DNA of 64,000 bases from a bacterium (lineage in GTDB: Bacteria; Patescibacteriota; Microgenomatia; Levybacterales; UBA12049). Where the stretch lies: NCBI GenBank assembly GCA_021813145.1, contig JAKALS010000001.1:3515-67514 (forward strand). Reading direction: 5' to 3'. Both the position numbers and the translations under genes were made by a program. Shown here piece by piece: positions 21,203 to 50,852 of this stretch (within the stretch, counting starts at the first letter, position 1; every line of letters starts with the position of its first letter). The notes below the pieces were generated by a model. It saw nothing but the letters and a program-made list of their open reading frames with translations. It did no database searches and was not told the origin of the DNA.

Positions 21203-22987
21203 TTAAGGGGCGACTTCTTGCCAGGTGTAGTTTGTTTTCCTGACAAAATTGGGAAGATTAAGTATAAAGTCAGGCCTTGATTGGACCGTAAATACAGGGC
21301 AGTAAGCATCGTTTCCGCAAAGGTCCCTGTTGTTCTGGACAGTTCCGCCGTTTAATCCCGCATTTACAATAATAGCTCCTGCTACATTGAGTCTGTTGTC
21401 GGGGCCTGTTGCGCAGTCGTTTGTTCCATTTATAACGAAGTTCTGGTCTGCGCTGAAAATTCCCTCAAGGTCGGTTGCCGTTGACAGATAATTACTCTCT
21501 CCAACGCTTTTATCTACATATATGCTTCCTTTTACTGAAAATATTACGGTAGAACCGACAGGAACGTGTATTTGAGTGTCTATTGTAAGGTCACCGTTAA
21601 CAAGAATAATGTAGTTTTGGTTTGCCGGGAAAGTATAGGAAGCGGGGCTTCCCGTACCGGTTAATGTAAGGCTTCCGTTTGCAATATATATTCCGTGGGG
21701 AAGACTTGATGAAAGCTGGCAATTTGTAAGTCCTCCAAGATTGCAATAAGAAGAATTGGATGTAATATCAACGGGAGTAATATTTGCCTGCTGGGCAATA
21801 GACTGCATGTAAGCATAAGAAGATTTTATAACTCCTCCGATTGCACCCGGTGCAAAACTCTCCGGGTATGATGCTCCTCCCGAAACCCAGTTGTTTACCG
21901 ATGCGCTTCCCTGGCCGAAATTTGCCGAGCCGTTTCCCGTATATACGACTCCGGGGGAGCCTGCGGAATTTACAGACGTATAAGCTCCGCCGCTGCAGGA
22001 AGTGTTGGCCGTATCCGGGATAGGATTATTAAAGCTGGACCCGCTTCCGCCTGTTCCCGAAGAACTGAAGCCTCCGTCGGTTCTTACATCTCCGCCGCCG
22101 CCGGTTTGAATCCATGGAATGCTGTCGGACATACCGAAGTTAAGGTTTTGGACATTATCCGAAGAGCATGTCGCATCAGGCGAACCGGTGGCCGCGCATC
22201 CCGGGCCTACAGTTACCGAGAAAGAAGGTGGCGCACCCGTAGGGATAGTCATGATCCAGTTTGTTCCGGGAAGACCCGAGGTGTAAGAAACGGTATATGT
22301 TCCGGCCGAAAGTCCTGTCACTTGGAATTTGCCCTGGGAAGGATAAGAAACGCTTCCTGCGGTAGAGGTGATCGTAACAGTACCCGTATAAAGGGATTCT
22401 CCGTTATCCAGTTTTTGATCTTTGTTTGCGTCAACAAATACATTTCCCTGAATGGAATACGGGCCGGGGGTAGGAGCGGGAGTTGAGCCCGTCGGGACAG
22501 GGGTGGGAGTTGTAGGGCAAAGCGAGCAGTCCGTAAGACAGCTTCCCGAAGCACAATATGGAACACATATCCCGCCTGCGCACTGAGAACAGGTTACCTG
22601 CGGAGCTGTACAAACAAGAGGTGTGGGTGTAGGGCTTGAAGTTGGGGTTGGGGTGGGAGTTGAAGTCGGGACCGGAGTTGGACAAGAGCTACAGCTATTG
22701 GAATAAGTACCACAATATTGATAGCAGGTTGATCCAGAGCATCCGTATTGGAGGGAAGAGTTAGATGGGCAAGTAGGAATAGGCGTCGGGCAGCCTGCAG
22801 TGCAACTTGTATTAAGGGTGTAATAAGGGCCGATATTGCAATATGTTCCAATGTAATAATAAGCAGTGTTACACGTGCTACTGCAGTATTGACTGCATGC
22901 ATTAGCCTGTTGGGGAGTGGATAAAAAGAAAAAAGCTCCTAAGAAAAGGAACACTACCAAAGATAAGAGGCTTATCTTTATTCTCAT
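21203..22987 (-). CDS. large secreted Cys-rich surface protein (Thr/Pro linkers)
   Basis: Signal peptide, then CxxC-rich modules, PTPTPT linkers and a Gly/Ser/Thr-rich beta-like C-terminal half. Confidence 0.5.
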   Translation of the reverse strand: MRIKISLLSLVVFLFLGAFFFLSTPQQANACSQYCSSTCNTAYYYIGTYCNIGPYYTLNTSCTAGCPTPIPTCPSNSSLQYGCSGSTCYQYCGTYSNSCSSCPTPVPTSTPTPTPTSSPTPTPLVCTAPQVTCSQCAGGICVPYCASGSCLTDCSLCPTTPTPVPTGSTPAPTPGPYSIQGNVFVDANKDQKLDNGESLYTGTVTITSTAGSVSYPSQGKFQVTGLSAGTYTVSYTSGLPGTNWIMTIPTGAPPSFSVTVGPGCAATGSPDATCSSDNVQNLNFGMSDSIPWIQTGGGGDVRTDGGFSSSGTGGSGSSFNNPIPDTANTSCSGGAYTSVNSAGSPGVVYTGNGSANFGQGSASVNNWVSGGASYPESFAPGAIGGVIKSSYAYMQSIAQQANITPVDITSNSSYCNLGGLTNCQLSSSLPHGIYIANGSLTLTGTGSPASYTFPANQNYIILVNGDLTIDTQIHVPVGSTVIFSVKGSIYVDKSVGESNYLSTATDLEGIFSADQNFVINGTNDCATGPDNRLNVAGAIIVNAGLNGGTVQNNRDLCGNDAYCPVFTVQSRPDFILNLPNFVRKTNYTWQEVAP

Positions 22988-23028: not shown

Positions 23029-23916
23029 CTATTGGGGAGTGTAATAATTTAGAGAATATACGTCTAGCTCTGAATTTTTAGGAACAAGTCCTGTGATTGG
23101 AAGATTCCCAGTTTTTGTGTAAAAAGATTTATTATAGTTGAAAGATTCGATATCTCCATTGGGGAATAATACAGTGAGAGTTTTCCCGTCAGAGGAAAGC
23201 TTAATCGAGAAAAAGGCTCTTTGGGAGATTGAATTATTTGAGGGTGTATAAAATGGTACAAAATCGGTAATTTTAGAAGCGAATAAAAATTGTATACCCC
23301 AAGCGTTAAAACTTGGATAGTAGCTTATATAGAATCTGTTCTCACTTGGATCACCTCCAAACATTAAGCCTAAATCATTCTTCCCATTTGAATCCGCTTT
23401 AAGGGCAAAATTCACCTGAACCCCTTTATTTCCGGGAACGATTTGATCACTGTTGGGAACAAATACGTAAGAGACTTCTTTGTCGGTGTTAATAAATTTT
23501 TGAGGATTAGCACATTTAATAAGTTGGTTTAATATTATGTTTTTATCGTTTGAATTAGAATTACAAGCGGCTAAATTCTGAAAATTATTACTAAAATAGA
23601 TTAAGTCATCCTGAGAAGAAGTATTTATTGCCGCGTTTTGCACGTTTTGCTGTTGAGGGAGAAAAGAAAGAGCGGGAATTACCGAAGAAAGTGGGATAAG
23701 ATTAAAATAATTAAAGGTAGTAAGTATCAGGATGCTGAATAGGGCTATGAGAGTTAATTCAAAAATGGAGGTCCTTATAAAATCAAAAATTCTGTAGGCA
23801 GTGGATTTAGGCGCTTCTTCTTGCTGTGGAGCCGCTTCGGTATTTTGGTTTGGAGTACTTACGGGATTGGGTATCCCAAGAGGATTTTGAATACTGGCAG
23901 GCGGTATTACTTCCAT
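23029..23916 (-). CDS. hypothetical membrane-anchored protein
   Basis: Transmembrane segment LTLIALFSILILTTFNYFNL followed by an Asn/Ser-rich extracytoplasmic domain. Confidence 0.4.
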   Translation of the reverse strand: MEVIPPASIQNPLGIPNPVSTPNQNTEAAPQQEEAPKSTAYRIFDFIRTSIFELTLIALFSILILTTFNYFNLIPLSSVIPALSFLPQQQNVQNAAINTSSQDDLIYFSNNFQNLAACNSNSNDKNIILNQLIKCANPQKFINTDKEVSYVFVPNSDQIVPGNKGVQVNFALKADSNGKNDLGLMFGGDPSENRFYISYYPSFNAWGIQFLFASKITDFVPFYTPSNNSISQRAFFSIKLSSDGKTLTVLFPNGDIESFNYNKSFYTKTGNLPITGLVPKNSELDVYSLNYYTPQ

Positions 23917-24121: not shown

Positions 24122-25942
24122 ATGGAGAAGTACTTAAAGTTTGTTTTCTTCTTTTTTCTTGTTGCAGCGTTTTTGTTTGAAGGTTTGGGTATAAAAAATG
24201 GCAGGGTGCTCTCTTACGGCTTAATACTCCTGCTGCCAGTTTTTCTTTTTATTCCGGAGATTTTTTCCAAAAGCCATGAAAAAATTCTCTTTCCGTTAAA
24301 ATTTTCTATCCTCTATTTCTTATTCATACTTTTTAGCTTATTTTCAAGTATCTTTTCCGTGAACCTCCAGAATTCTTTCGAGCAGCTGTTTTTATATATA
24401 GCTTTGTTTTTGGTTTTTATTTTTGTATATAACTACAAACATTTGATAAGTGAAACTTTATTAAAAATAATTTTTGTTTTGGCCCTTATTTTTTCTTTAT
24501 TTTCTATTTTTATAAGTTTTTTTGCATTAAAAAACTCCTTTTTGACTATACCTTTGGATGTAACAACAAACTATTATCAGTTTGTATATTCCGCATGGGC
24601 GCATAATCATTTAAGCGATTTTCTTCTTCTGCCTTTAATAATTTTAATATTCAGATTTTTGTCTCAAAAATTTAAACCGGAGAATTTATTATTTTTTCTC
24701 TTTTTTATTCCCTATTTTATTTTTGCCTACTCAAGGTCGGCCTATCTTGATTTGGCTTTAGTAATTTCGCTAATTCTCGTTTATTATCTTTTTAAGAAAG
24801 GTCAGGGGTGGGGAAAACATATTTTACTGATTTTGGGAAGCTCATTAGCGGTATTAGGTTTAATTGTTTTAGTCTTTTCCGCTTCCGCAGGCGGGCAGCA
24901 GAATGTTTTCGGCTCACTGAATTTTGCACTCAGGGAAAAGTTTGATTTGGGGCAAAAACAGTTTTTTGCAGGCAGAAATGTATACCTTTCCCAGGGACTT
25001 TTTTCTTTTGTAAATAACCCGATTTTAGGATTAGGACCCGGTAATTTTGAATATGCATCCCAAAAATATTCCAATTCTCCGACCGAAATAACAAGCACGG
25101 GCCATAATATTTTTTTGGATATTCTTGTAGAAAACGGATTTTTGGCGGAAATTTTCTTTATATTATTATTTTTTCAAATTTTCTCATCGATAAAAAGAGC
25201 GGTATTCAATAATCTTAACAAAAACGAGTCCAGTCAGAGTTGGCAAAAATCGATAATCAGTAATCAACAATCTTTAATCTATCCGTTGTTGTTTATAGCT
25301 ATGCTGTTAAATTTTCAGACCGATTTTACTTATCAAATTTATTCTTTTTTTCTTTTATTCTTTGCAATATTGGGCTTAGTTTACGAAGAGAAAAGCAAAT
25401 TAAATCCCGGAATTTTGCCGCTGATAATTTCTATAGTACTTTTGTTTTTTATTTCTTTAAAAATTATTAGTTCCGTAGAGGTTTCTAAACAAGATTACAC
25501 GCTTGCATTTTATGCATATCCCCTTAACAGGGAAGTCTATCAGCCGTTAATAAGCAGAGAATTATATATGGGAAACAAGGAAAAAGCCTTCTATTATCTA
25601 AGTTTTTACACAAAAGTTTTTAAAGGAGACTACGATTCGCTAATTTGGGTTGGAGATATATACGACAATTACGAAGGCCCGAAGTATGCATTGCCATATT
25701 ATGAGAAAGCTTTTTTGGTCAATAAGTTCATAGATCCTCTTTACGTTAAAAAAATATACGATATTAAAAGTAAGTTTGAAGGAAGAGAAAATGCAAAGGA
25801 ACTTATTACTCCTTACTTTAAAAATCTCTCTAATGTTAATGATCCGACAGGGCAATATCAACAGACCTATTATCAGTACAGGCTAAGCGCATTAAAAGTT
25901 TGCAGGGAAATATACAACGGGAACTGTCCCTATAGCCTGTAG
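24122..25942 (+). CDS. O-antigen ligase / polymerase (Wzy_C)-like polytopic membrane protein with a C-terminal soluble extension
   Basis: At least 10 predicted transmembrane segments. GHNIFLDILVENGFLAE matches the H-N-x-x-L...E-x-G signature of the O-antigen ligase family. C-terminal about 200 aa are TPR-like. Confidence 0.55.
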   Translation: MEKYLKFVFFFFLVAAFLFEGLGIKNGRVLSYGLILLLPVFLFIPEIFSKSHEKILFPLKFSILYFLFILFSLFSSIFSVNLQNSFEQLFLYIALFLVFIFVYNYKHLISETLLKIIFVLALIFSLFSIFISFFALKNSFLTIPLDVTTNYYQFVYSAWAHNHLSDFLLLPLIILIFRFLSQKFKPENLLFFLFFIPYFIFAYSRSAYLDLALVISLILVYYLFKKGQGWGKHILLILGSSLAVLGLIVLVFSASAGGQQNVFGSLNFALREKFDLGQKQFFAGRNVYLSQGLFSFVNNPILGLGPGNFEYASQKYSNSPTEITSTGHNIFLDILVENGFLAEIFFILLFFQIFSSIKRAVFNNLNKNESSQSWQKSIISNQQSLIYPLLFIAMLLNFQTDFTYQIYSFFLLFFAILGLVYEEKSKLNPGILPLIISIVLLFFISLKIISSVEVSKQDYTLAFYAYPLNREVYQPLISRELYMGNKEKAFYYLSFYTKVFKGDYDSLIWVGDIYDNYEGPKYALPYYEKAFLVNKFIDPLYVKKIYDIKSKFEGRENAKELITPYFKNLSNVNDPTGQYQQTYYQYRLSALKVCREIYNGNCPYSL

Positions 25943-26154
25943 ATTTTTTGAAGTGGGAAGTGAGATGTTCTTGAACTTGAACTAGGTACATGATCCGCAG
26001 CAGTTAGAGCAGGACCAGTTGCAATTGGCAATCCCGCAGCAGGAGGTAGCGCAAGCAATTAATCTTCCCTGGTTTAATTTATTAGGGGTGTAGAAAAGAT
26101 TAATCTTAAATCTCTTTTTTTGAATATCAGGTTTTTGATATTTGTTGTATTTTT

Positions 26155-26670
26155 TCATTGCTGCAAAATAAAAATATTTATGTCCAATGGTGCTTCATTT
26201 GGATCTATGGCGAGGTTCTCATTAAATTGGACCATTATTTTATCTCCGGGTTTTAAATCGCTTACTCCCACCTTTGAAGTTGTTCCATTTTTATCTTGAA
26301 GGTATACTGAGGTAGTTAATAAGTTTTTCCCCGTAATTGGGATGTTTGTCATATCTGCTTTATCGCCCTCCAGCACTATTAGTACTCCTTTATTGTCTTT
26401 TGACGGAATTATATTTTTTACTATTCCGTTAACATTTTGGGTAAAATATACATTTGCATTTTTATAAGACGGCCAGCTTTCAAGCATTTTTAGGGCAATA
26501 GGGTTAATTGCTAGGTTTGCTATGGGTATAGGGGTAGAGGTTGATGTCCCGATCGGGACCTGAGCTATTTTTTTAGGTTCTTCAAAAACAAAAAGAAATA
26601 CAACTTCCGAAAAAGCCGTAATAAGAAGAGCAATTATTATGGCAAGGAACACCTTGTTGAGCCTGGACAC
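26155..26670 (-). CDS. membrane-anchored protein, paralog B of the pair that flanks the RiPP operon
   Basis: MSRLNKVFLAIIIALLITAFSEVVFLFVF is nearly identical in pattern to the N-terminus of 30523-31044. Pro/Thr linker. Confidence 0.5.
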   Translation of the reverse strand: MSRLNKVFLAIIIALLITAFSEVVFLFVFEEPKKIAQVPIGTSTSTPIPIANLAINPIALKMLESWPSYKNANVYFTQNVNGIVKNIIPSKDNKGVLIVLEGDKADMTNIPITGKNLLTTSVYLQDKNGTTSKVGVSDLKPGDKIMVQFNENLAIDPNEAPLDINIFILQQ

Positions 26671-26722
26671 TTTAAATCACCTGATTATAGTAGAACACTT
26701 TGCTTAAGCGATGTCAATAGCA

Positions 26723-27487
26723 CTATTTCAAGGGGTTGCCAAAGGAAAAAGTGCTAATTACTGTTTCCTCAGTCCCGTCTACATCAAGTAATTTGTTTAG
26801 TGTGTCTTCTTTAAAACCCGCTACCTCGCAACACCCAAGATTTAGGGGAATGGAATTTAGGTAAAAATTTTGGCCGAGATGGCCTGTATCGATAAAAACA
26901 TGTCTATAACCGCGTTCTCCGTATTTAACCGTAGTTCTTGCGAAAACTCCGGTAACAATAATTATAAAAGCCGACCCTTTAACCCATTCTTGGTCAAAAT
27001 ATTTTCTGAAGTTTATCGTTTTATACGCGTAAATATGCTCAAGACTGTGAGTTCTTGGGTAATAATGATAAATTCCGTTAGGAAGTTCGGTATTAAAAGA
27101 TAAAAGGTAAATTTCAAGAGGGTATCTTCCTCCTCCCGAAGGATAAAATCTAAGAGGATACAAATTTTCATCAAGATTTTTTATTCCTGCGCTATGGTAC
27201 AGGAGAGAGGAAATTCTTTTAAGGTCAACCTTTTCTTTAGTGAATTCCCTTATGGACTCTCTTTTTAGAAGCGCTTTGGATAAGGCAACTTTAGGAAGTT
27301 CAATTTTGGGAAGCTTAATCTGTTCAAAACGGAAATAGCTTTTAAAATAAACTTTTTTCCACGTTTCGGGAGGTTTTTTTAAATCTTTTCTGAAGCGGAC
27401 ATTTTTTGATGCTTCGTAAAATTTTTGAAAAGGTGAGTTGTTGATGTTTAATAACTCCTCAATCTCGTTGTTATTTTTTATTTTCAT
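26723..27487 (-). CDS. SagB-type (McbC-like) FMN-dependent dehydrogenase of azoline-to-azole RiPP pathways
   Basis: RFYPSGGGRYPLEIY resembles the SagB hallmark PSAGGLYP. GYRHVFIDTGHLGQNFYL and CEVAGF are nitroreductase-fold segments. Confidence 0.65.
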   Translation of the reverse strand: MKIKNNNEIEELLNINNSPFQKFYEASKNVRFRKDLKKPPETWKKVYFKSYFRFEQIKLPKIELPKVALSKALLKRESIREFTKEKVDLKRISSLLYHSAGIKNLDENLYPLRFYPSGGGRYPLEIYLLSFNTELPNGIYHYYPRTHSLEHIYAYKTINFRKYFDQEWVKGSAFIIIVTGVFARTTVKYGERGYRHVFIDTGHLGQNFYLNSIPLNLGCCEVAGFKEDTLNKLLDVDGTEETVISTFSFGNPLK

Positions 27488-28767
27488 ATAAAAGGATGCG
27501 GAACTTGATTAAAATTCCCGGTTTCCACGTTAAAGAAATCCGCCACTTCTTTTATTCTTCCCGTCTTTAATTCTTTCTCTTTCTCATTCAAATAGAGAGG
27601 TTGAAGACGGGGAATAATGATTTTGAATACTTTATAGTCAATATCGGTAAAGTTATCTAAAGTTATGTCGGAATAATATGCATCCAGATTATTTTTCTTT
27701 AAAATTTTTTTCACTGTTTCCAGTTCTTTTACAGGGTTGTCTATGGGGGGTAGGGTTTTATATATCTTCGATTTTTCCGATTTTGTGAGAAAATCTAATT
27801 TGTCTTCCATTTGGGGCGTCATCCATAAAAGTGCCCTTTCAGCAATAGTTGGAACATGTTTTCTTATTTTTACATTTTTCTTTTTGTCAAATAGCTGCAA
27901 TTTCGCAAAGTATCTATTCATGAATGCCTCTTCCATGGCTCCCAGAATCGCAGTTTTTGTATCTAGGCTCGCTTTCATTCCCAGTGAAAGTTGGGGAAGA
28001 TTACCCGTTTCATCTAACAAAACGGTTAAGAATACAGGCACTTGAAGATTATTGGTAATATTAAAGATCAGGGGTTTTAGTCTGTATCTCTTGTAATAAT
28101 CGCCTAGGGATTTTATAGCGCTATCCTTAATGGAACTTATTTTTATCTTGGGGACCCTTATTTTATTAAGATATACCGTCATGAATGCATCTCTTTCTAT
28201 GACCTCATAAATTCCATTAAGAATAACTCTTGTGCTATCAAATCCTCCAGCTGCACCCGTACTTATACTTGAAGTCAGAGAAACTTCATTATCTTTTGGA
28301 AAGTTTAGATATAAAAGCTGGGCAGGAAGAAGTACCTGTTTATTGTCAAATAAATCGTGTCCCTTTATCCATCCGAACTTTGTTTCTTTTATTTTGTCCG
28401 TGTTTATATAAATTTGAGGATTTAAAGCATTAATTCTTTTCTTTTTCAGTTCATTATAGGTAGTATATGTAATCGATTTATAGCTATAGCAGCATTGGTT
28501 AAATCTTTCTGCAGCCTCGCTAAGACACTTCAATAGGGCGGTTTCTTTTGATGCATAAGATAATCCGTTTGCCCCGATTTTATATGCGTTGAGCTTATAT
28601 TCAGATTTCGGAAAAAAGGGATTACTTGAGTTATTAAGCATAACCGAATAGTAATTTAGCTTAGGTTCGTCATAAAAGTGGTTAGAGTTATTTGCTACTT
28701 TCTTAATAATTTTTTTTCCGTTAAGTTCTTTATAGAGTATTTTGATTAATTCCAAGTTATTTTCCAT
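27484..28767 (-). CDS. YcaO-domain cyclodehydratase (azoline-forming type)
   Basis: CLSEAAERFN and GIYEVIERDAF match the YcaO ATP/Mg-binding E-x-x-E-R motifs. SISTGAAGGFD. C-terminal ...VPHPFI is a proline-rich tail like the PxPxP of TOMM YcaOs. Confidence 0.7.
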   Translation of the reverse strand: MENNLELIKILYKELNGKKIIKKVANNSNHFYDEPKLNYYSVMLNNSSNPFFPKSEYKLNAYKIGANGLSYASKETALLKCLSEAAERFNQCCYSYKSITYTTYNELKKKRINALNPQIYINTDKIKETKFGWIKGHDLFDNKQVLLPAQLLYLNFPKDNEVSLTSSISTGAAGGFDSTRVILNGIYEVIERDAFMTVYLNKIRVPKIKISSIKDSAIKSLGDYYKRYRLKPLIFNITNNLQVPVFLTVLLDETGNLPQLSLGMKASLDTKTAILGAMEEAFMNRYFAKLQLFDKKKNVKIRKHVPTIAERALLWMTPQMEDKLDFLTKSEKSKIYKTLPPIDNPVKELETVKKILKKNNLDAYYSDITLDNFTDIDYKVFKIIIPRLQPLYLNEKEKELKTGRIKEVADFFNVETGNFNQVPHPFI

Positions 28768-29483
28768 TATTTTATGTAGTAAAAATTATCAAAATTTTTA
28801 ACAAATTCCATTAAATATTTTATTTGGCTGTTGTAGTTTTTAGAGTCTCCGCTGATTTTTTTCGCAAGGTTTTCGAGGATTTGTTCTTTATCTTCAATTT
28901 TACCTTCGGAAATATTTTTACTTTTTAAGGGGATATAGATATTTCCGATTGGGAATTTCCCGTGGTTTTTTTCAATAAAGGGATTTTCGATAAAAGGTGA
29001 TTGGTAAAAATAATATCTACCGTTTTCCTTTTTTATAATCGATATGTCATCGGTTAAAAATTTATTATGTATATTTTCTATGTCCTTAAAGAAGATTTCT
29101 GCTTTACCGTTTTTTTCTATTGCTATTGATTTTAGGAATAGCGTTTCATGTTTGAGAGATAATTTAAAGAGTATAAAATTAATTACCGTTTGGAATTGAA
29201 GAGGGTTTATGGAGTAGTAGGCGTTCATGCTATTTACTCCGGTTTCTTCAAAAAAACCCAAATAATATTTTTTACCTTTTCCATTGTAAAGTAAGTCCAT
29301 TCTCTTTTTTTCTATAAAATTTATCGTGTAGTCCGGTTTGTTGTTTGGATTTTTTATGATAAATCCTTTAAAAAAATCAATAATTTCATTTTTAATAGTA
29401 TCTCTTACAAAAGGCTTTTCGCTTTTGTTAAAAACTGTTTTAATATTAAATCCGCCGATTTTAAGAGTTAGTGAATTATTCAT
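28767..29483 (-). CDS. HPr-kinase-like family protein lacking a Walker A motif (paralog of 29489-30286)
   Basis: Collinear with 29489-30286 and 48517-49332 (shared NFILF/NFVLL region and C-terminal QIKYLMEF..FDNFY). No GxxGxGKST P-loop. Confidence 0.5.
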   Translation of the reverse strand: MNNSLTLKIGGFNIKTVFNKSEKPFVRDTIKNEIIDFFKGFIIKNPNNKPDYTINFIEKKRMDLLYNGKGKKYYLGFFEETGVNSMNAYYSINPLQFQTVINFILFKLSLKHETLFLKSIAIEKNGKAEIFFKDIENIHNKFLTDDISIIKKENGRYYFYQSPFIENPFIEKNHGKFPIGNIYIPLKSKNISEGKIEDKEQILENLAKKISGDSKNYNSQIKYLMEFVKNFDNFYYIK

Positions 29484-29488
29484 ATTCC

Positions 29489-30286
29489 CTAAAGAGTATT
29501 TTCCAATAATTTTATAAGGCCCTTGCTGCTTTTTGAGAAATAGAGAAAATAAAAGTTATCGAATTCGCTTATAAACTCCATAAGATATTTTATTTGAGTA
29601 GAGTAGTGCTCGTCTCTTGTAAAGATTTGTTTTGATATTAATTTTAGAACATACTCCTTGTTTGTGATTTTTTTGATTTCAAAATGCTTAGATTTTTTTA
29701 AAAAATACACTGAATTTACGGTTGTCCCACTGGAGGTCTTGGTGATCAGGTTTTTTTCCAGGATAGGCGATTGATACAAGTTATATTTGCTTGCCTCTTT
29801 TCTAATTAATGTTATGTCATCGGATAATTTGAAATACCTGTTTTTTAAAAGGTTTGCTGTTGTTGACTTTCCCGCTCCGCTTTTGCCAAGAAAAATATAT
29901 GCCTTGTTATTAATCTTTACTGCGGAAGAATGCAAAAACAAAATTTTATTTTTTTCACTTAATCTTAAAAGTACAAAATTTACCAGCGATTGAAATTGAA
30001 AAATATTTATAAGGTAATGGGTTTTGATTCTATTTTTTTTTATTATTTCGAAAAAAGCCAGATAATATTTCGATTTATTTTTTTCGCTTAATAACTCAAG
30101 TTTTTCTTCTTCCGTTATTTCGATAATAAAGTCGGGGCTTTTAGGTTTATTCTCTATAAAGTTAGCAAAGAAATCTTCAATATTATTTTTTAAAATTTTT
30201 TTTGCAACATTTAATTCAGTCTTTTTAAATATAATCTTTATGGAAAATCCGCCCACTAAAATATTTATAATTTCGGTATTTTTCAT
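29489..30286 (-). CDS. HPr kinase/phosphorylase C-terminal-domain-like putative peptide kinase
   Basis: FLGKSGAGKSTTANLLKNRYFKLSDD matches the HprK P-loop region [25 protein letters not shown]. Confidence 0.55.
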   Translation of the reverse strand: MKNTEIINILVGGFSIKIIFKKTELNVAKKILKNNIEDFFANFIENKPKSPDFIIEITEEEKLELLSEKNKSKYYLAFFEIIKKNRIKTHYLINIFQFQSLVNFVLLRLSEKNKILFLHSSAVKINNKAYIFLGKSGAGKSTTANLLKNRYFKLSDDITLIRKEASKYNLYQSPILEKNLITKTSSGTTVNSVYFLKKSKHFEIKKITNKEYVLKLISKQIFTRDEHYSTQIKYLMEFISEFDNFYFLYFSKSSKGLIKLLENTL

Positions 30287-30335
30287 TTTGGATATTGTAC
30301 CAAATTTATTTTTAATTAAAAGAAGGGGAGAAGGC

Positions 30336-30512
30336 TTATGTTGCTTTTATAGAGCTGCTTCCGCAACCGCAAGAACTCGCTGCATATACTTTTCCTACTG
30401 CTAGTCCATTAGCAGAATCTAGAAAACGTTTATTAAAAAAGAACATAGAAAAACCTTTTACGGTTCTCCTTCTTATCTTAGGCTTAATATAACGATTTTC
30501 AACGGTCTTCAT
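30336..30512 (-). CDS. candidate RiPP precursor peptide, 58 aa (not in the supplied ORF track)
   Basis: Minus-strand ATG at 30512 translates to MKTVENRYIKPKIRRRTVKGFSMFFFNKRFLDSANGLAVGKVYAASSCGCGSSSIKAT, with stop at 30336-30338. The Cys/Ser/Gly-rich C-terminal core is typical of azoline-type substrates. Sits immediately upstream of the HprK-like/YcaO/SagB genes on the same strand. An alternative start is the second Met (36-aa product). Confidence 0.5.
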   Translation of the reverse strand: MKTVENRYIKPKIRRRTVKGFSMFFFNKRFLDSANGLAVGKVYAASSCGCGSSSIKAT

Positions 30513-30522
30513 AATAGCTATT

Positions 30523-31044
30523 TTACTTTAAAAATCTTTGTATTTCTACGCTATCCGGCATTTTGCCATCGGATGTGTGCATATCGTAAGTAGCAGTTAT
30601 TATAATACTATTTCCGGATGAAAGATCACTAAGTTTTATGGGTGTTTGAACTCCGTTTGTCAGATCATAAACTTTTACGCTTTGAGAAAGCGGGGGCATA
30701 ATGTCATATTGAGTAACTTCTTTTCCTTTTACTCCCTCTAGATGAATTGTGAGTACATTATTGTTTGCCTGGGTAGGAAGATCTACCGAAGAGACTATGC
30801 CTGTTACATTTTGAGTAAAGGTGTAAGTTGAGTTGGTCCAATAGTGGGCAGTTTTTAGGTAATCTATCATGTAATTCGTTACGGCAGGGTTTTGAATAGG
30901 GGTAGGTGTAGGAGCTGTTAAGGCCTGAGGGGGAGTGGGAACAGTCTGGGTGGGTTTATAAACAAACAGAAATACCACCTCTGCAAGAGCAGTAAAAAGA
31001 AGAGCTATAATCACAGCTAAAAATATTTTATTCAGCTTTGACAT
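30523..31044 (-). CDS. membrane-anchored protein, paralog A of the pair that flanks the RiPP operon
   Basis: MSKLNKIFLAVIIALLFTALAEVVFLFVY. Pro/Thr linker. 10 nt upstream of the precursor ORF. Confidence 0.5.
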   Translation of the reverse strand: MSKLNKIFLAVIIALLFTALAEVVFLFVYKPTQTVPTPPQALTAPTPTPIQNPAVTNYMIDYLKTAHYWTNSTYTFTQNVTGIVSSVDLPTQANNNVLTIHLEGVKGKEVTQYDIMPPLSQSVKVYDLTNGVQTPIKLSDLSSGNSIIITATYDMHTSDGKMPDSVEIQRFLK

Positions 31045-31597
31045 CAGTTTTAGAGGGCGAGCAACTCTATTATCACTTGGTAAATCCAGTGTATATAAAC
31101 TTATTATTAAAAGTCAATACCCAAGCATTCATATTTTATTTAAAAATACTTTATGCTAATATCAATTTAATTTATGTTCGAAAGCGTCAAGCAAATATTG
31201 ATCTTAAGTACAAAGTCAAAGAAAATCTGGTTGATTCCCGTTTTTTTACTTTTAATAATCATCGCACTTTTGGTAATAAGCGCTACAATTTCTCCTGTCC
31301 CCGTATTCCTTTACCCGATTATATGAAGATTTTAAGGAGAATTTCTAAAAAAATTAACGATTATTTTATTCTTATTGTTCTTTTCATTTTTTATTATCCA
31401 GTAATCGGAATTGCTTTTTTCTTCTTCAAATTGTTGTCTTTAAATAAAAAATCATCAGCTTCTTATTGGGTTAAGCCCAAAAATCAGGATTTCGATAAGA
31501 AATATTTCGAGTCACCATATTGAAGCGAGAGTCCATGTTTAAATATAAGTTTGTATTAAGCGAGCTGAAAGACATGGTTTTCGCGGAGGAGGACTAA

Positions 31598-33334
31598 ATG
31601 TATATTTTAGGAATTTCGGCTTATTATCACGATAGCGCAGCCGTTTTAATAAAAGACGGCAAAATAGTTTGCGGTGCAGAGGAGGAAAGGTTTACAAGAA
31701 AAAAACACGATAACGGTTTCCCTTTTAAAGCAATAGAATTTTGCCTTAAAGAAGCTGGTATCTCAATAAAACAGGTCAATTACGTAAGTTACTACGAAAA
31801 ACCTCTACTTAAGTTTGAAAGGTTAATGGAAACATTCGTAGAGACTTATCCGTGTTCTTTAAAAGTTTTTCTAAAAGGAATGCCCGAACATTTGGATTAT
31901 AAAATAAAAATTCAAAAAACAATAAAAGATAAATTAAAATATAAGGGCAAAGTTTATTTTGTACCGCATCATCTCTCTCATGCCGCAGCGTCTTATTATG
32001 CATCCCCTTTTAAGGACTCCGCAGTCTTAACAATAGACGGAGTAGGTGAGTATCAGACAACGGCTTTATGGAAGGGAGAGGGTAATAAGATAAATCTTCT
32101 AAAATCAATAGATTTTCCGGATTCCTTGGGGCTTTTATATTCAACATTCACAGCTTTTTTGGGTTTTAAAATAAATGACGATGAGTATAAAGTAATGGGA
32201 CTGGCCGCTTACGGAAAACCTAAATATACAAAACAAATATATAAGTTGATAGATGTTAAAGACGACGGAAGTTTTAGAATGGATCAAAGTTACTTTGCGT
32301 ATAGGGAGAGTTTTAAAATGTGGAGTAAAAAATTCGTAAAATTGTTTGGAAAACCAAGGCAACCCGAAGGGGTAATGACACAGAAACACAAGGATATTGC
32401 CGCAAGCCTTCAAAAAGTTACGGAAGAAATTTATTTCAAAATTCTCAACCACTTATACAAACAAATAAATATCAATAATCAGCAATCAGCAATCAGTAAT
32501 CTATGTTTGAGCGGTGGAGTTGCCTTAAATGCATTGGCAAACGGGAAGATATATGAAAATACGCCTTTCAAAAATATATATGTTTTCGGTGCCGCAGGGG
32601 ATAGCGGAGGGGCTTTAGGTTCTGCTTTGTTGACTTATTATTTTATCCTAGGAAAGAATAGAAGAAATAAGATTAAGGATTTATATTTTGGTTCTTCATA
32701 TTCAAATTCCGAAATAGAAAAGGAGCTTGAAGCATACGGCCTAAGCTATAGAAAGTTCAGCTCAGAAGAAAAATTGATTGCGGAAGCCGCAAAGCTTCTT
32801 TCGGAAGGTAAAATAATCGGTTGGTTTCAGGGCAAAATGGAATTTGGCCCAAGGGCATTGGGTTCCCGTTCAATCCTTTCTTCTCCGAATCCAAGAGCAA
32901 TGAAAGAAAAGGTAAACAGGATAAAGGTAAGGGAGCAGTTCAGACCCTTTGCCGGCTCAATTCTACAGGAAAAGGTAGATGAATACTTCAAGGTACCGGA
33001 AAAAACCCATTGGTCTCCTTTTATGATATTCTGCTTTATAGTAAAAAAGGACAAAAGAAAAGAGCTTGCCGCAATTGTTCACGAGGATAATACCTGCAGA
33101 GTTCAAACTGTTAACAGGAAAGATAACGGAAGATACTACAAACTTATAAACAAATACTACAATCTGACCGGAACTCCTTGCATCTTAAATACCAGCTTCA
33201 ATTTAAAAGGGGAGCCCGTTGTAGAAAATCCAAAGCAAGCCATAGAAGACTTTCTGAAAACAAAAATGGATCATCTTGTTGTTGGAGATTATTTGGTTTC
33301 TAAAAATTTTAGAAGAAATTTTTATTCAAGATGA
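31598..33334 (+). CDS. NodU/CmcH-family carbamoyltransferase
   Basis: MYILGISAYYHDSAAVLIKDGKIV...AEEERFTRKKHD N-terminal Kae1/YgjD-like fold. Collinear with O-carbamoyltransferases. Confidence 0.75.
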   Translation: MYILGISAYYHDSAAVLIKDGKIVCGAEEERFTRKKHDNGFPFKAIEFCLKEAGISIKQVNYVSYYEKPLLKFERLMETFVETYPCSLKVFLKGMPEHLDYKIKIQKTIKDKLKYKGKVYFVPHHLSHAAASYYASPFKDSAVLTIDGVGEYQTTALWKGEGNKINLLKSIDFPDSLGLLYSTFTAFLGFKINDDEYKVMGLAAYGKPKYTKQIYKLIDVKDDGSFRMDQSYFAYRESFKMWSKKFVKLFGKPRQPEGVMTQKHKDIAASLQKVTEEIYFKILNHLYKQININNQQSAISNLCLSGGVALNALANGKIYENTPFKNIYVFGAAGDSGGALGSALLTYYFILGKNRRNKIKDLYFGSSYSNSEIEKELEAYGLSYRKFSSEEKLIAEAAKLLSEGKIIGWFQGKMEFGPRALGSRSILSSPNPRAMKEKVNRIKVREQFRPFAGSILQEKVDEYFKVPEKTHWSPFMIFCFIVKKDKRKELAAIVHEDNTCRVQTVNRKDNGRYYKLINKYYNLTGTPCILNTSFNLKGEPVVENPKQAIEDFLKTKMDHLVVGDYLVSKNFRRNFYSR

Positions 33335-34890
33335 AAGTTCATTTTATTAACCTTAGGGCTATATTTTTTAAGTATAAATTAGACATCGTTTTAATTTTGT
33401 CTATTGCGGCCTTTTTCAGGCTTTATAAAATAAGAAACTACATGGAATTTCAGGGGGACGAGGGAAGGGATGCTTTAGTTGCTTATAATATATTACACGG
33501 TCATCTGACCCTCCTTGGTCCATCTGTTTCAGTTGGAGGTTTTTTTCTGGGGCCTGTTTATTACTATTTTATGGCCCCATTTTTATGGATTTTCAACTAT
33601 GATCCGGTAGGCCCAGCGGTAATGGTCGCTTTGTTTGGAATAGCTACAGTATTACTTATTTATAAAGTCGGAGGCGAATTTTTTGGCAGGAAAGCAGGAA
33701 TTATAGCATCATCACTATACGCAATTTCGCCGTTAATGATAATTTACTCGAGTTCATCCTGGAATCCTTGGCTTCTTCCTTTCTTTTCGTTGTTAGCTCT
33801 TTATACTCTTTATAAGGGCCAAATAAAAAATAAATTATTATTTTATTTGGCGACTGGTTTGTTCTTGGGAATTGCCGTACAGCTTCATTACACAGCTCTT
33901 TTTTTGCTTCCAATAGTTTTTGTATATGTCTTAATGGGAGATTTGTTTATGTCAAGAACATACAAAAAAATTATAAAGCCATTAATAATTAAATATTTAA
34001 TTTTGTTATTGGGGTATTTCATTGCGTGGTTGCCGTTTTTATTTTATGAAATAAATAATGGTTTTCCCAATTTAAGAGCAATTTTTAATTTTGTTTTAAA
34101 TACGGGAAGTAGTGGTACGAATTTTGGTATGTTTACAATATTTTATGATGTTTTTGTGAATATTTATGGCAGGTATGTTTTTGGGGCCTTTCCTCCTATA
34201 GAGTACCTAAATTTTAACGGTCAACCGTTTATACTATTAACATATCTCTTTATTTTAATCTCAATTTTTCCAAGCTTTATCCTATTAATCAATAAATGCG
34301 TCAGAGTCTGGAAAGAAAAAAACTCAGATTTTTTGAAATATAATCTCCTGTTGACTTGGTTAGTGTTGGGAGTAGGTTTTTTTAGCTTTTATAGAGGTCC
34401 TTTTATGGATCAGGTTTACGTTTTGCTTTTTCCCCTCCCATTTTTATTGGTAGCATTATTAATAAGTTTCCTTTACGAATATAAATCAAGATTTTTTCCC
34501 CAAAAAATTATAAAAGCAGTTAGTATTTTAATATTTTTAATCATAGCGATACTGAATCTAGAGAACGTCTACATAAAATATCAGCATACAGATAACGTTG
34601 GTCAAACAGAATCTGCATCGCAATTTATATTAGCAAAAGCTGGAGGACAACCTTTTGATTTTGCGTTAATAACCAACCCGCCTAATTATGATATGGCTTA
34701 CTTATATTTTTTTACTATCTTGGGAAATGCTCCGGTAAATTCAGATACAAACCAGCTTTTTGTAGTCTGTGAAAGGAAATGCAGCCCATTAAAAAATAAT
34801 TCACCCGATATAGTAAATTTTGGTAGGGCTAAAGTATTGGGGGTTTGGAAAGTTTCAGGGGTAAAAGTTTATAGATTAGTTCATTTCTGA
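33331..34890 (+). CDS. GT-C fold membrane glycosyltransferase (ArnT/PMT, GT39/GT83-like)
   Basis: About 12 transmembrane segments. N-terminal EFQGDEGRD loop resembles the conserved DE-containing periplasmic loop of the ArnT/PMT family. Confidence 0.5.
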   Translation: MKVHFINLRAIFFKYKLDIVLILSIAAFFRLYKIRNYMEFQGDEGRDALVAYNILHGHLTLLGPSVSVGGFFLGPVYYYFMAPFLWIFNYDPVGPAVMVALFGIATVLLIYKVGGEFFGRKAGIIASSLYAISPLMIIYSSSSWNPWLLPFFSLLALYTLYKGQIKNKLLFYLATGLFLGIAVQLHYTALFLLPIVFVYVLMGDLFMSRTYKKIIKPLIIKYLILLLGYFIAWLPFLFYEINNGFPNLRAIFNFVLNTGSSGTNFGMFTIFYDVFVNIYGRYVFGAFPPIEYLNFNGQPFILLTYLFILISIFPSFILLINKCVRVWKEKNSDFLKYNLLLTWLVLGVGFFSFYRGPFMDQVYVLLFPLPFLLVALLISFLYEYKSRFFPQKIIKAVSILIFLIIAILNLENVYIKYQHTDNVGQTESASQFILAKAGGQPFDFALITNPPNYDMAYLYFFTILGNAPVNSDTNQLFVVCERKCSPLKNNSPDIVNFGRAKVLGVWKVSGVKVYRLVHF

Positions 34891-35882
34891 CAGGGAATAA
34901 TATTGTTTTGGGTTAGATAATTATATAAGTCGTTTACAATTAATGTGTAGCCCTGGGAAGAAGGATGAGAATCTCCTAAATAATATTTTTGATTCTGGTA
35001 AATATTAGCCAAATTTCCATAAAAGTAAGTATGTTGCCTGTCCTTTACAAACCCGTTTATAATATTTAAGGAATTTACATCTTGTGAAGGGAAATTAAAT
35101 AATATTAATGGTCCTTTGTAATAATCATTGACGCTTTCTAAATATTTTTTTTGTAGTCTAAGAATATTTCTTTCTCCCCCAAGCGTCTGCAATATTTGCT
35201 GTTGTGCCTCCTCCCAACCTTTGTAAAAAATACCTTGTTTTTCAAGTTTAGCTTCTTCGCCGGAAGCTTGAAGTTGTGCGTCAAAGGAAGCGGTTTTGGG
35301 AATTTGCAATTCGTCTAATCTTGTCCAATCGGTGTTGATTATAAACCATAATATTAAATCAGGATTATATTTTTGCCCCCTAAGTTTATATCTTTCTACG
35401 GAATAAGCAATATCATAACCGTAGACACCAAGATTAATAACCTCAAATTTCTTGATATTTGTACATTTAAGTGAACTATTTAATTTTTTTTCAAGTTGAG
35501 AGGGGTAATTATCTTCCGTATTTACATTTTGCCCAAACGTAAAAGAATCTCCCAGCGTGACTATTCTATACACACCTGCTGACTTTGTGGCAGTATAGTT
35601 AGGGATTTGGTTTAATCCGTCTGCATTTATTTTGTATCTTATTTGGGTTCCGGCCGGGTAGCCTAATTCTACTACTAATTTAGGGTCTATAGTTTGAATA
35701 CTATTGGGTCTTGGTTCATAATAGTATTTGAATGTTGATGAATAAGGAAAGTCTATAGTTTTTGGTGATATCTCATTTATAGAAACTAAGACTGATTGGT
35801 TTTTATATAAAATATTAAATAATAGAGCAAGAACAATTATTAATTGTAACAAGATAAGAAGTATAAAAATCTTAGTTCTCAC
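34881..35882 (-). CDS. SGNH/GDSL-family hydrolase, membrane-anchored
   Basis: N-terminal transmembrane segment. IVTLGDSFTFG GDSL block. Later GxND/DxxH-like segments. Confidence 0.5.
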   Translation of the reverse strand: MRTKIFILLILLQLIIVLALLFNILYKNQSVLVSINEISPKTIDFPYSSTFKYYYEPRPNSIQTIDPKLVVELGYPAGTQIRYKINADGLNQIPNYTATKSAGVYRIVTLGDSFTFGQNVNTEDNYPSQLEKKLNSSLKCTNIKKFEVINLGVYGYDIAYSVERYKLRGQKYNPDLILWFIINTDWTRLDELQIPKTASFDAQLQASGEEAKLEKQGIFYKGWEEAQQQILQTLGGERNILRLQKKYLESVNDYYKGPLILFNFPSQDVNSLNIINGFVKDRQHTYFYGNLANIYQNQKYYLGDSHPSSQGYTLIVNDLYNYLTQNNIIPCQK

Positions 35883-35999
35883 ACCAGCTAGTTTAAATTA
35901 TAAATAAAAAAAATCAAAGAATAAATATGCAGAAAGCAGTCTTGTTGAAAGAATTTCAGATATTTATTTATTCATAGATTTATAGTAAATATATTAATA

Positions 36000-37607
36000 G
36001 TGTATAAATTTTACATAAAAACAAAGAACAGTATTAATTGGAAATATTTCTACATGATAATTTCTTTAATATCTTTAATCGTTTTTACAGCTTTTTTATA
36101 TGTTTTACACACTCAAATATTCTATGTGGCGGATGATTTCTGCTTTGCAACGTACAAACCGTTAAATATTTTAGGGGTACTTACTAATTCTCTAAACCTT
36201 TATTTTACCTGGAGCGGACGTTTTATCTATAATTTTCTAGCTTTTTATTTTTCGGGAGGGGAAGCCTTTTTATGGGAAATTCTTAATCCTATAGTTATAC
36301 TTTGGTTGTCGTTAATGATATGGATTATATCAAAGGTAAGTGAACCACGCGCAATAAGTAAAATTTCAGCCTTGCTTTTTATTTTGTTTATTTTTTTAAC
36401 TTTAAATCAAAATATCGCTAGAGAAGTACTTTACTGGATGAACGGCACGTTTTATTATTTATGGCCTATAACAATATCTTTGACATTTTTATCTTTTTGG
36501 ATTAAGTCATTTAATAAAACCAAATTTATAAATTACTCAAAATTTATATGTTTAATTACTGCAGCATTTGTTGGTAATTCTCATGAACAAACGGGGACAA
36601 TATTTGTATTTTTAACATTTGGTATATCCCTATACAAAATGAGACAGGGGTTTAGGTTAGATAGAATTCAGTTTATAACATTGTTAATATTGTTAGCCGG
36701 TTTCGTTTTACTTATCTTGGCGCCTGGAAATTTTGTCAGGCTTGGTGATAGTTTACGCAGTAATGGACTTTATTTTTCCGGGGGAATAATTTCAAATCTA
36801 AATATAAGACTTATCGGAATATTGTCAGTTATTTTTTACTCATCGACTGGCAGTATGTTTTTGAGTTTATTCTCAATTTTGTTTTTACTTGCGGTAATTA
36901 ATTTGATTTTCTCGAAGATATTAAGCAATATGATCCATAAATACATATTAGTTTTATTGTTAAGCATATCTTGCCTTGTTTCTTTTTTAATAAATCCTGA
37001 TATAACTTGGAAAATTCTTATGCCAGTTAGGACAATTTTTGGTACTTTTTTTGCCAATTACAATGTTTTCGATGTTCAAGCTGTTCCTACACAAATTTTT
37101 TGGACAATATCTTTATTCTCGTTGATGGATTTTGGGTATATATTAAGTAGGTATGATAAATCACCAATATTTTTTTATACTATAGTTTCCACAATTTTAT
37201 CTCAATTAATAATGATTGTCTTCCCCTATAGCGCTTATAGGTCTTTTTTTATTACAGTTGTTTTTATAGTCATAGCAATATCCTATCTAATTCAAAGGCT
37301 TGATGTAAGATTTATTAATCTGATTATTTTTTCAAGCTGTATGATGCTTTTTATTGGAGGTTTATTATATTATCGGCAATTAATTGAAGGTTATCGTAAT
37401 AACAATTTGATAATGACGAATAATGAAAAGATTATAAAAGAGTATAAGAATAATAATTCAGCTTCACCGCTTGTTCTAAAACGATTAGCAAATGATATGT
37501 ACGGTTTTAATATGCCTTATATTAATGGATATGATTACGAACTTATATGTATTAGAGATTATTATGGCTTAAAGAAAAATGTAAAGTTTTCTTGGATACG
37601 TAAGTGA
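36000..37607 (+). CDS. polytopic membrane protein, probable GT-C-like glycosyltransferase
   Basis: More than 12 hydrophobic segments. Located inside the glycan island. No definitive motif. Confidence 0.4.
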   Translation: MYKFYIKTKNSINWKYFYMIISLISLIVFTAFLYVLHTQIFYVADDFCFATYKPLNILGVLTNSLNLYFTWSGRFIYNFLAFYFSGGEAFLWEILNPIVILWLSLMIWIISKVSEPRAISKISALLFILFIFLTLNQNIAREVLYWMNGTFYYLWPITISLTFLSFWIKSFNKTKFINYSKFICLITAAFVGNSHEQTGTIFVFLTFGISLYKMRQGFRLDRIQFITLLILLAGFVLLILAPGNFVRLGDSLRSNGLYFSGGIISNLNIRLIGILSVIFYSSTGSMFLSLFSILFLLAVINLIFSKILSNMIHKYILVLLLSISCLVSFLINPDITWKILMPVRTIFGTFFANYNVFDVQAVPTQIFWTISLFSLMDFGYILSRYDKSPIFFYTIVSTILSQLIMIVFPYSAYRSFFITVVFIVIAISYLIQRLDVRFINLIIFSSCMMLFIGGLLYYRQLIEGYRNNNLIMTNNEKIIKEYKNNNSASPLVLKRLANDMYGFNMPYINGYDYELICIRDYYGLKKNVKFSWIRK

Positions 37608-37656
37608 ATTCCAAGGGTTAAAATTTTTAGTTGGTTCATTACCCGGGTATATAGAG

Positions 37657-39906: not shown

Positions 39907-39948
39907 AAAAGAGCAGTAGCCGAATTATCGCATAGAGGTTGTTTTAAG

Positions 39949-41067: not shown

Positions 41068-41134
41068 TAATCGGATTATACAATATATTTTTTGCTTTTA
41101 AGGAAAGTAGGGATATGCTAAACTAGCAAAATAG

Positions 41135-43642: not shown

Positions 43643-43643
43643 A

Positions 43644-44483: not shown

Positions 44484-44529
44484 TTATTTTTTTAGGGTTA
44501 TTTAACGTAGAATTATATTATAATAAGAA

Positions 44530-48513: not shown

Positions 48514-48516
48514 CTT

Positions 48517-49332: not shown

Positions 49333-49589
49333 AATACAAAGTAAATAAAGGTTTTATAATTCAAAAAGTAGGGGATAGTTCGACGATTTTTGACGGGGAA
49401 AAATCGGAACTTTATACTTTTAATAAAACTGCTACCTTGATTTTTGAAAAAATAAAGTCAGGCTGGGAAAGCGCAAAAATAATTGAATATCTTTCAAAAT
49501 TTTATTCGATTAAAAAAGAAGAGGCGGAAAAAGATTTTAACGAATTTGTATCCGAACTTATAAAATCAAAGATTCTTTCTAAAAAATAA
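49329..49589 (+). CDS. PqqD-family RiPP recognition element (RRE) protein
   Basis: 86 aa. FNKTATLIFEKIKSGWESAKIIEYLSKFYSIKKEEAEKDFNEFVSELIKSKIL follows the PqqD pattern LNETAAxIxELxDG..t..eIi..L...y.v..e....Dv..fl..L...gli. ATGA-coupled to the upstream kinase-like gene. Confidence 0.65.
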   Translation: MKYKVNKGFIIQKVGDSSTIFDGEKSELYTFNKTATLIFEKIKSGWESAKIIEYLSKFYSIKKEEAEKDFNEFVSELIKSKILSKK

Positions 49590-50801: not shown

Positions 50802-50852
50802 TCTTTTGAATATTCTAGCATAAGGATAAACGAAGTAGTAAAATAAGCCGTA

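Follow-up and report, generated by a model that had tools for sequence, protein, structure and literature searches.

The stretch of DNA analysed here (64,000 nucleotides of contig JAKALS010000001.1; referred to below as the window) carries on its minus strand, at 25982-31044, an operon for a peptide that is made on ribosomes and modified after translation (RiPP), in which a standalone YcaO enzyme and a SagB-type dehydrogenase are encoded together with ScmC-family proteins of the HprK/PEP carboxykinase (PEPCK) fold. With a second locus at 47911-52673, this operon is read here, with somewhat more confidence than doubt, as a biosynthetic system split over two loci that makes one or two small azole peptides and belongs to a gene-cluster family widespread in the Candidate Phyla Radiation (CPR; Patescibacteria).

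All seven minus-strand open reading frames (ORFs) reported in a preliminary description of this DNA were found at exactly the same coordinates in the ORF list of the window, and the identities proposed for them were confirmed. In operon order these are membrane protein 1 (173 residues; 30523-31044), with an N-terminal transmembrane helix, a Pro/Thr-rich linker and a β-rich domain of about 115 residues; precursor peptide 1 (58 residues; 30336-30512); an ScmC-family P-loop protein of the HprK/PEPCK fold (265 residues; 29489-30286), a predicted peptide Ser/Thr kinase; its P-loop-deleted ScmC-family paralog (238 residues; 28767-29483); the YcaO (427 residues; 27484-28767), a predicted ATP-dependent cyclodehydratase; the SagB-type flavin mononucleotide (FMN) dehydrogenase (254 residues; 26723-27487), predicted to oxidize azolines to azoles; and membrane protein 2 (171 residues; 26155-26670), a paralog of membrane protein 1 with 36% identity. 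The precursor set had been incomplete: a second Cys-rich precursor of 58 residues lies at 25982-26158 on the same strand (3e-17 with the hidden Markov model, HMM, of the precursors), 3' of membrane protein 2, so that in the operon the four enzyme genes have a membrane-protein gene paired with a precursor gene on either side. The genes are spaced as in an operon, with gaps of 10, 49, 5 and 52 nucleotides and overlaps at three junctions: the stop of the 238-residue protein gene overlaps the YcaO start by 1 nucleotide, the SagB and YcaO genes overlap by 4 nucleotides, and the precursor 2 gene overlaps the stop of the membrane protein 2 gene by ATGA. Promoter and terminator motifs in 25600-31500 were no more frequent than in shuffled sequence.

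The leader of precursor 1 ends ...YIKPKIRRRTVKGFSMFFFNKRFLDSANGLAVGKVYA and is followed by the core ASSCGCGSSSIKAT. Precursor 2 has a related leader, MKKYNKYQKPDIQKKRFKINLFYTPNKLNQGRLIA, and a very Cys-rich core, CATSCCGIANCNWSCSNCCGSCT. Both are members of a precursor family in which 21 distinct sequences share a conserved leader (consensus K-P-x-I-K-x-K-K-V-K...F-F...R-F-x-D-S...[VLI]-x-A) and cores rich in Cys, Ser, Thr and Gly. Both cores of the window end in Thr; among relatives the last residue is Q, S, A, I, G, P, C or another. A member of the membrane-protein family precedes the precursor in L003, L006, L012, L057, L060 and L063-L067 (L numbers denote the related loci described below). 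Membrane protein 1 matched nothing in Pfam or NCBIfam, and a role of these precursor-paired proteins in immunity or anchoring would be a guess. Additional domains were observed in some precursor homologs. Those at L051:12069-12590(-) and L080:5120-5599(-) carry a Peptidase_S74 domain, the intramolecular chaperone of endosialidase, after the Cys-rich core (about 1e-15), and that at L061:5849-6901(+) carries two Hint/intein-like modules in this position; autoproteolytic C-terminal followers of this kind are unusual on RiPP precursors.

The 427-residue protein matches Pfam YcaO with an E value of 3.9e-46 (158 bits). Its best-scoring YcaO model, by a wide margin, is the NCBIfam SagD-type model TIGR03604 for thiazole/oxazole-modified microcins (TOMM; 2e-58, 198.1 bits, cutoff 219.25), compared with 7e-23 for the McrA-thioamidation model. 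The conserved acidic residues that bind ATP and Mg are present, and 52 homologs show little or no variation in the catalytic Glu/Arg residues or in the C-terminal PHPF motif. The 254-residue protein exceeds the cutoff of the SagB-family peptide dehydrogenase model TIGR03605 (146.1 against 78.4 bits), matches Pfam Nitroreductase (6e-21) and contains the motif RFYPSGGGRYP. SagB adjoins YcaO in 68 of 80 related loci. The earlier assignment of an azole-type RiPP operon is supported.

The 265-residue protein has a PEPCK/HprK-type fold, with an intact Walker A motif, GKSGAGKS (residues 134-141), followed by Asp-Asp at 156-157. Pfam ScmC (PF27840) is recorded for this protein and all 30 of its database homologs, and for the 271-residue paralog of the second locus; none is recorded for the 238-residue protein. 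Other models are matched weakly (HprK_rel_A, 1.3e-6; ScmC, 3e-6; Pfam Hpr_kinase_C, 0.0023, 17.9 bits, threshold 33.3), with NCBIfam scores of 26.8 against a cutoff of 125 for TIGR04249 and 27.8 against 200 for the HprK-related kinase model. A Pfam search of the 238-residue protein gave no Hpr_kinase_C match. It shares 39% identity with the 265-residue protein, and an 8-residue deletion removes exactly GxSGAGKS and leaves the Asp-Asp pair in place. This P-loop-deleted form is confined to the lineage of the window and its closest relative, L003, and is likely to be a pseudokinase or scaffold that serves as a lineage-specific non-catalytic subunit. A general role as YcaO partner was considered for the 238-residue pseudokinase and rejected on its occurrence in a single lineage. 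The ScmC subfamily comprises 662 representatives at E<=1e-30, of which the top 150 all have a single domain and a length of 257-291 residues. Practically every single-copy ScmC gene of the family retains an intact Walker A, and the Asp-Asp pair is also conserved, which argues for a catalytic role over scaffolding.

The second locus lies about 18 kb from the operon and was absent from the preliminary description, in which the two HprK-like paralogs were the only enzymes besides the YcaO and the dehydrogenase. It was located through PqqD and NTP_transf_5 genes in the YcaO clusters of relatives, to which the counterparts in the window are 43-50% identical, and adds a third paralog, a PqqD protein, a peptidase-nucleotidyltransferase fusion and an ATP-binding cassette (ABC) exporter. 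The third ScmC-family P-loop paralog (271 residues, with the motif GRNGAGKS; 48517-49332, plus strand) is followed on the same strand by a PqqD-family protein of 86 residues (49329-49589; Pfam PqqD, 34.8 bits, threshold 23.4), a candidate RiPP recognition element (RRE). The best NCBIfam matches of the latter are lasso-peptide PqqD chaperones, below cutoff, and it is 43-48% identical to the PqqD proteins inside the YcaO clusters of L001, L002 and L006. On the minus strand, 49566-50801 encodes a 411-residue fusion of a signal-peptidase-I-like domain of the SipW/archaeal type (TIGR02228, 53 bits, cutoff 51.85; Pfam Peptidase_S24, 25.1 bits, threshold 23.3) with an NTP_transf_5 domain (Pfam, 94 bits), a candidate leader peptidase and phosphate-decorating enzyme. 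The motifs GNSMYP, FTHRV and KGDNN are present in it, and its orthologs lie in related clusters. A plus-strand gene at 50853-52673 encodes an ABC permease/ATPase of 606 residues, a probable exporter with NCBIfam matches of the MsbA, HlyB and bacteriocin-ABC type. Four nucleotides upstream of the third ScmC paralog is a gene for a Bac_transf polyprenyl-phosphate glycosyl-1-phosphate transferase (47911-48513, plus strand; TIGR03025, 2e-60), which is possibly associated with the system.

Conservation was analysed in a metagenome scan with the YcaO alignment. The 80 loci obtained were screened with HMMs built from the proteins of the system; 26 non-redundant loci contain both YcaO and ScmC, and 59 YcaO loci without ScmC served as the comparison set. 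Most of the 26 also have SagB, the membrane protein, the precursor, PqqD and NTP_transf_5, and the full set of seven families is found in L057, L060, L061, L064 and L065. Homolog look-ups of the 265-residue protein led to the same families in L001 (Candidatus Levybacteria), L002, L003, L006/L007, L044, L045 and L046. A genome scan on a generic P-loop pattern returned, among the matches listed, mostly distant HprK-like genes of other phyla and one close locus, L012, which was added. Gene order and orientation vary widely among the 26 loci. Since the gene set is conserved through this rearrangement, the comparison gives strong evidence that the genes function together, and the co-occurrence expected in the preliminary description is borne out. 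The PqqD gene immediately precedes YcaO in L006 and L057 and immediately follows ScmC in the window, L012, L045, L061, L065 and L069. The YcaO search returned 120 cluster representatives, the closest 100 or so at 33% identity or above; the named homologs are from Daviesbacteria, Levybacteria, Parcubacteria and the 'Patescibacteria group', which makes a CPR origin of the window most likely. In a neighbour-joining YcaO tree (calculated without bootstrap) the ScmC-associated loci, including the window, form one clade, and the small number of its members that lack ScmC come from contigs of 2-6 kb.

The absence of an E1-like or ThiF partner, as first described, was confirmed. Pfam gave no ThiF/E1 match for any gene called in the window. 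Using the protein with a winged-helix N-terminus encoded directly upstream of a distant YcaO (L092) as a ThiF query, jackhmmer searches of all six-frame ORFs identified ThiF genes beside YcaO in ten loci, all in a distant YcaO clade, and no ThiF gene in the window, nor in the 26 loci with ScmC and YcaO. Partner type follows YcaO phylogeny. A winged-helix or PqqD-like domain was sought in the 265- and 238-residue proteins and in the YcaO and was not found; hhalign gave probabilities of similarity to PqqD of 0.2% for the ScmC profile and 0.7% for the YcaO profile. The two HprK-like proteins are of the HprK/PEPCK fold, as first assigned, with no ThiF match and no RRE-like domain. The statement that no leader-binding partner is encoded has to be withdrawn: the PqqD protein at 49329-49589 is of an RRE family, with orthologs inside the YcaO clusters of relatives. 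The suggestion that the HprK-like proteins replace the canonical partner accordingly survives in part. The lack of E1/ThiF on which it was built stands, and the YcaO retains its ATP-binding residues; with a PqqD RRE encoded in the system, leader recognition need not fall to the HprK-like proteins.

From the observed gene identities, folds, motifs and co-occurrence we infer every chemical step of the following scheme, including the leader binder. The 58-residue precursors carry a conserved basic and aromatic leader ending in [VLI]-x-Ala, to which the discrete PqqD protein would bind as the recognition element. The standalone YcaO would cyclodehydrate core Cys residues, and perhaps Ser and Thr, to azolines at the expense of ATP, and the SagB-type flavoprotein would oxidize these to azoles. 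The 265- and 271-residue proteins, with their intact P-loops, would act as ATP-dependent peptide Ser/Thr kinases, and the NTP_transf_5 domain may attach a further group to the phosphate. The specificity of type I signal peptidases suits a leader end of the form [VLI]-x-Ala, and the fused signal-peptidase-like domain is therefore a candidate leader peptidase that would cut after the leader Ala. The ABC protein would then export the product.

The assignment of kinase activity draws on lasso peptides. In these clusters, homologs of HPr kinase phosphorylate the C-terminal Ser of the precursor and a nucleotidyltransferase, sometimes fused to the leader protease, adds hexoses to the phosphate (PMC8498205). 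The distantly related locus L030 (Cohnella faecalis) is a lasso cluster of the paeninodin type, with the gene order APS (adenosine phosphosulfate) kinase, sulfotransferase, HPr-kinase homolog, PqqD (B1), transglutaminase (B2), NTP_transf_5, ABC and Asn-synthase-like cyclase. In the window, 48517-52673 likewise combines an HPr-kinase homolog, PqqD, NTP_transf_5 and an ABC exporter in one locus; the order kinase, PqqD, (protease), NTP_transf_5, ABC is common to both, and the ABC protein occupies the same position as the L030 exporter. BLASTP aligned the 265-residue protein with the L030 kinase at 3e-11 across the LH-SA...GxSGAGKST...SDD core, with only about 38% identity over a core of 80 residues. 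By homology to the lasso-peptide kinases, Ser/Thr phosphorylation by the HprK-like proteins is plausible, and we favour the 265- and 271-residue proteins as tailoring kinases, with PqqD as the shared leader-binding element.

Several observations weigh against this interpretation. The 265-residue protein falls below the curated cutoffs of Hpr_kinase_C, HprK_rel_A and the TIGR04249 ScmC model. Distant HprK-like proteins and the lasso kinase itself exceed no NCBIfam cutoff, so that NCBIfam supplies no precise family name. In the window, PqqD is encoded 18 kb away from the operon, where its neighbour is a different ScmC paralog. The YcaO misses the SagD-family cutoff by 21 bits, and the PDB entries closest to it in sequence and structure are thioamide-forming enzymes, the archaeal MJ1094 and the YcaO of M. 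kandleri. Unlike lasso precursors, the cores have no conserved terminal Ser, so the lasso rule for the site of phosphorylation does not transfer. Two related cores, L068:3002-3253(+) and L070:5061-5261(+), are without any Cys and are instead of low complexity, rich in Ser, Thr, Gly and Asn; oxazoline formation, phosphorylation or glycosylation of Ser/Thr must be the dominant chemistry there.

A further-reaching proposal is that this CPR clade of YcaO enzymes has replaced the E1/ThiF partner by a free PqqD together with a P-loop protein of the HprK/PEPCK fold, and that the azole product is also phosphorylated. We regard this as possible but rather doubtful. If true, PqqD and the P-loop protein would be a further YcaO partner system after E1-like/Ocin-ThiF and TfuA.

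The ScmC/HprK-like proteins could, alone or with PqqD, be an obligate functional partner of this YcaO clade that provides activation and substrate presentation in place of the E1-like or Ocin-ThiF protein, and not be tailoring kinases; this we consider unlikely, if only slightly more so than the preceding proposal. The phylogenetic pattern is in its favour, the clade of the window having ScmC and never ThiF, and the more distant clade having ThiF, with its winged-helix N-terminus, directly upstream of YcaO. So is gene position: ScmC is immediately upstream of YcaO, overlapping or adjacent, in the window, L003, L044, L051 and L115, and divergently adjacent to it in L048, L049 and L061, and the translational coupling of the P-loop-deleted copy to YcaO recalls the catalytically inactive E1-like C protein. 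However, ScmC adjoins PqqD or NTP_transf_5 as often as YcaO, has no RRE-like region, and keeps Walker A and Asp-Asp family-wide, which favours catalysis over scaffolding; the P-loop-less copy is limited to one lineage. Without any YcaO, the module of ScmC-like protein, PqqD and NTP_transf_5 is also found in many phyla and in lasso clusters, and kinase activity is proven for the lasso homolog. Nor does a YcaO necessarily require such a partner, thiazoline-forming enzymes that act without one being known from bottromycin (PMC7136475).

The tailoring-kinase interpretation was also weighed against one in which ScmC, PqqD and NTP_transf_5, together with Bac_transf and Wzy_C (O-antigen-ligase-like) proteins, constitute a separate envelope glycoconjugate system that merely lies near YcaO and SagB and does not act on the peptide. 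In the window this trio is indeed 18 kb from the operon, amid glycosyltransferase, aminotransferase and Bac_transf genes, and translational coupling of ScmC to a Bac_transf or Wzy_C gene is frequent. In most relatives, however, the trio is interleaved in many arrangements with YcaO, SagB, precursor and membrane protein; two ScmC paralogs are inside the operon of the window; PqqD proteins form a family that binds peptides, and the trio is known as a tailoring module of RiPPs; and the association follows YcaO phylogeny. A separate system is thus improbable. The glycan-related genes may be linked to the peptide in another way. Bac_transf homologs are present in 9/26 loci with ScmC and YcaO and Wzy_C homologs in 6/26, compared with 0/59 for each in the YcaO loci without ScmC (the linkage was noted in L001, L006, L045, L046, L059, L063-L065, L068 and L115). 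As these genes track the loci with ScmC and YcaO, their distribution hints that the peptide or its phosphate could be glycosylated via a lipid-carrier route, and the linkage of Bac_transf, Wzy_C and NTP_transf_5 suggests that the phosphate may be further glycosylated or linked to a lipid carrier. Arylsulfotransferase and sulfatase-family genes are also found in the clusters of relatives.

Least probable of all is that the YcaO performs another backbone activation (thioamide or amidine formation) and that the nitroreductase-fold protein has a different role: the thioamide-forming PDB matches, the SagD score just under cutoff and the missing E1/ThiF partner would fit, but the SagB model is well over its cutoff and the SagB gene overlaps that of YcaO, the SagD-type model far outscores that for McrA thioamidation, the PHPF motif is conserved, the cores are Cys-rich, and neither a TfuA nor a sulfur-donor gene turned up among the genes called in the window.

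In comparison with the clusters for linear peptides that contain azol(in)e rings (LAP) and for TOMMs, among them those of microcin B17 (McbBCD) and of streptolysin S (SagBCD) (PMC7136475), the system has in common the SagB-type FMN dehydrogenase, a leader with a core rich in Cys, Ser, Thr and Gly, and the ABC exporter. It differs in that both the E1-like C protein and the Ocin-ThiF F protein are missing from the window and the 26 related loci, a separately encoded PqqD protein is the RRE, the YcaO scores just under the SagD-family cutoff, and there are additional components, namely HprK-like P-loop proteins, NTP_transf_5 and a signal-peptidase-like domain. The bottromycin YcaO is also a standalone thiazoline-forming type without an E1 or ThiF partner (PMC7136475), but bottromycin has a follower peptide and neither an RRE protein nor a SagB-type dehydrogenase, whereas PqqD and SagB are conserved here.

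With the clusters of phosphorylated and phosphoglycosylated lasso peptides (paeninodin PadeK, ThcoK and pseudomycoidin PsmK/PsmN) the system shares the HPr-kinase homolog, PqqD (B1), NTP_transf_5 and ABC exporter in the same order, a nucleotidyltransferase fused to a peptidase domain (there sometimes to the leader protease), and, near the clusters of the relatives of the window, sulfotransferase genes. The class-defining enzymes are instead YcaO and SagB, and the conserved C-terminal Ser of the core is missing; neither the lasso cyclase (Asn synthase) nor the B2 transglutaminase protease is present among the called genes of the window. SynChlorMet ScmC (TIGR04249; PF27840) and the HprK-related kinases A and B (TIGR04352, TIGR04355) are of the same superfamily and likewise pair with a PqqD homolog, but here the NCBIfam scores are far under the cutoffs and the partner is a YcaO. 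The SynChlorMet cassette includes two radical S-adenosylmethionine (SAM)/SPASM enzymes, and L027 has a radical SAM/SPASM gene beside its ScmC; no radical SAM gene was found among the called genes of the window. HprK/P and PEPCK differ in that Hpr_kinase_C is matched below threshold here, no HprK N-terminal domain was matched, and the context is peptide maturation and not carbon catabolite control.

The components are all of known kinds and the product class, a linear azole peptide, is known. The combination of standalone YcaO, SagB, free PqqD, P-loop proteins of the HprK/PEPCK fold and a peptidase-nucleotidyltransferase fusion, conserved across a CPR clade, is undescribed in the literature searched. 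There, YcaO and HPr kinase are brought together in no paper, nor are YcaO, PqqD, a kinase and a nucleotidyltransferase; nothing was found on SynChlorMet, and the RRE-mining papers make no mention of kinases. CPR surveys list YcaO clusters without analysis (PMC12153355). The natural-product chemistry of the CPR/Patescibacteria is almost uncharted, and the cluster family is common in metagenomes and, with a defined precursor family, directly testable. The tailoring module of kinase, PqqD and nucleotidyltransferase known from lasso peptides would be portable to YcaO chemistry, and the system lends itself, as a natural example, to the question of how azoles are synthesized when the E1/ThiF partner is missing. 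Should the kinase-like protein be needed for cyclodehydration, the current partner rules for YcaO genome mining would change.

The operon adjoins a plus-strand gene at 24122-25942 for a Wzy_C membrane protein (Pfam Wzy_C, 49.9 bits), which is possibly associated with the system. Just past it, on the minus strand, are genes for a 295-residue membrane-anchored protein (23029-23916) and a 594-residue secreted protein with a Cys-rich and Pro/Thr-rich N-terminal half (21203-22987), both without a Pfam match; the same pair follows the cluster in L003-L005. Between the two loci, 31598-46101 is packed with envelope-glycan genes, which include a NodU-like carbamoyltransferase, PMT_2-type glycosyltransferases, GT4 and GT2 glycosyltransferases, a second Wzy_C, a GH10 protein and a DegT aminotransferase.

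Other YcaO-SagB architectures were observed among the related loci. In the clade of L072-L074, L076 and L081 the pair is flanked by an APH-type phosphotransferase and a His_Phos_1 histidine phosphatase, and not by ScmC or ThiF, which represents another kinase-linked YcaO architecture. A further clade (L099, L100, L103, L106, L111, L118-L122, L124 and L125) has neither ThiF nor ScmC. Neighbours were scanned in six loci and were tetratricopeptide-repeat proteins (L106, L121 and L124), a radical SAM/SPASM protein (L111) and a β-propeller protein (L100); the sixth, L075 of the APH-associated clade, is flanked by an M16 peptidase.

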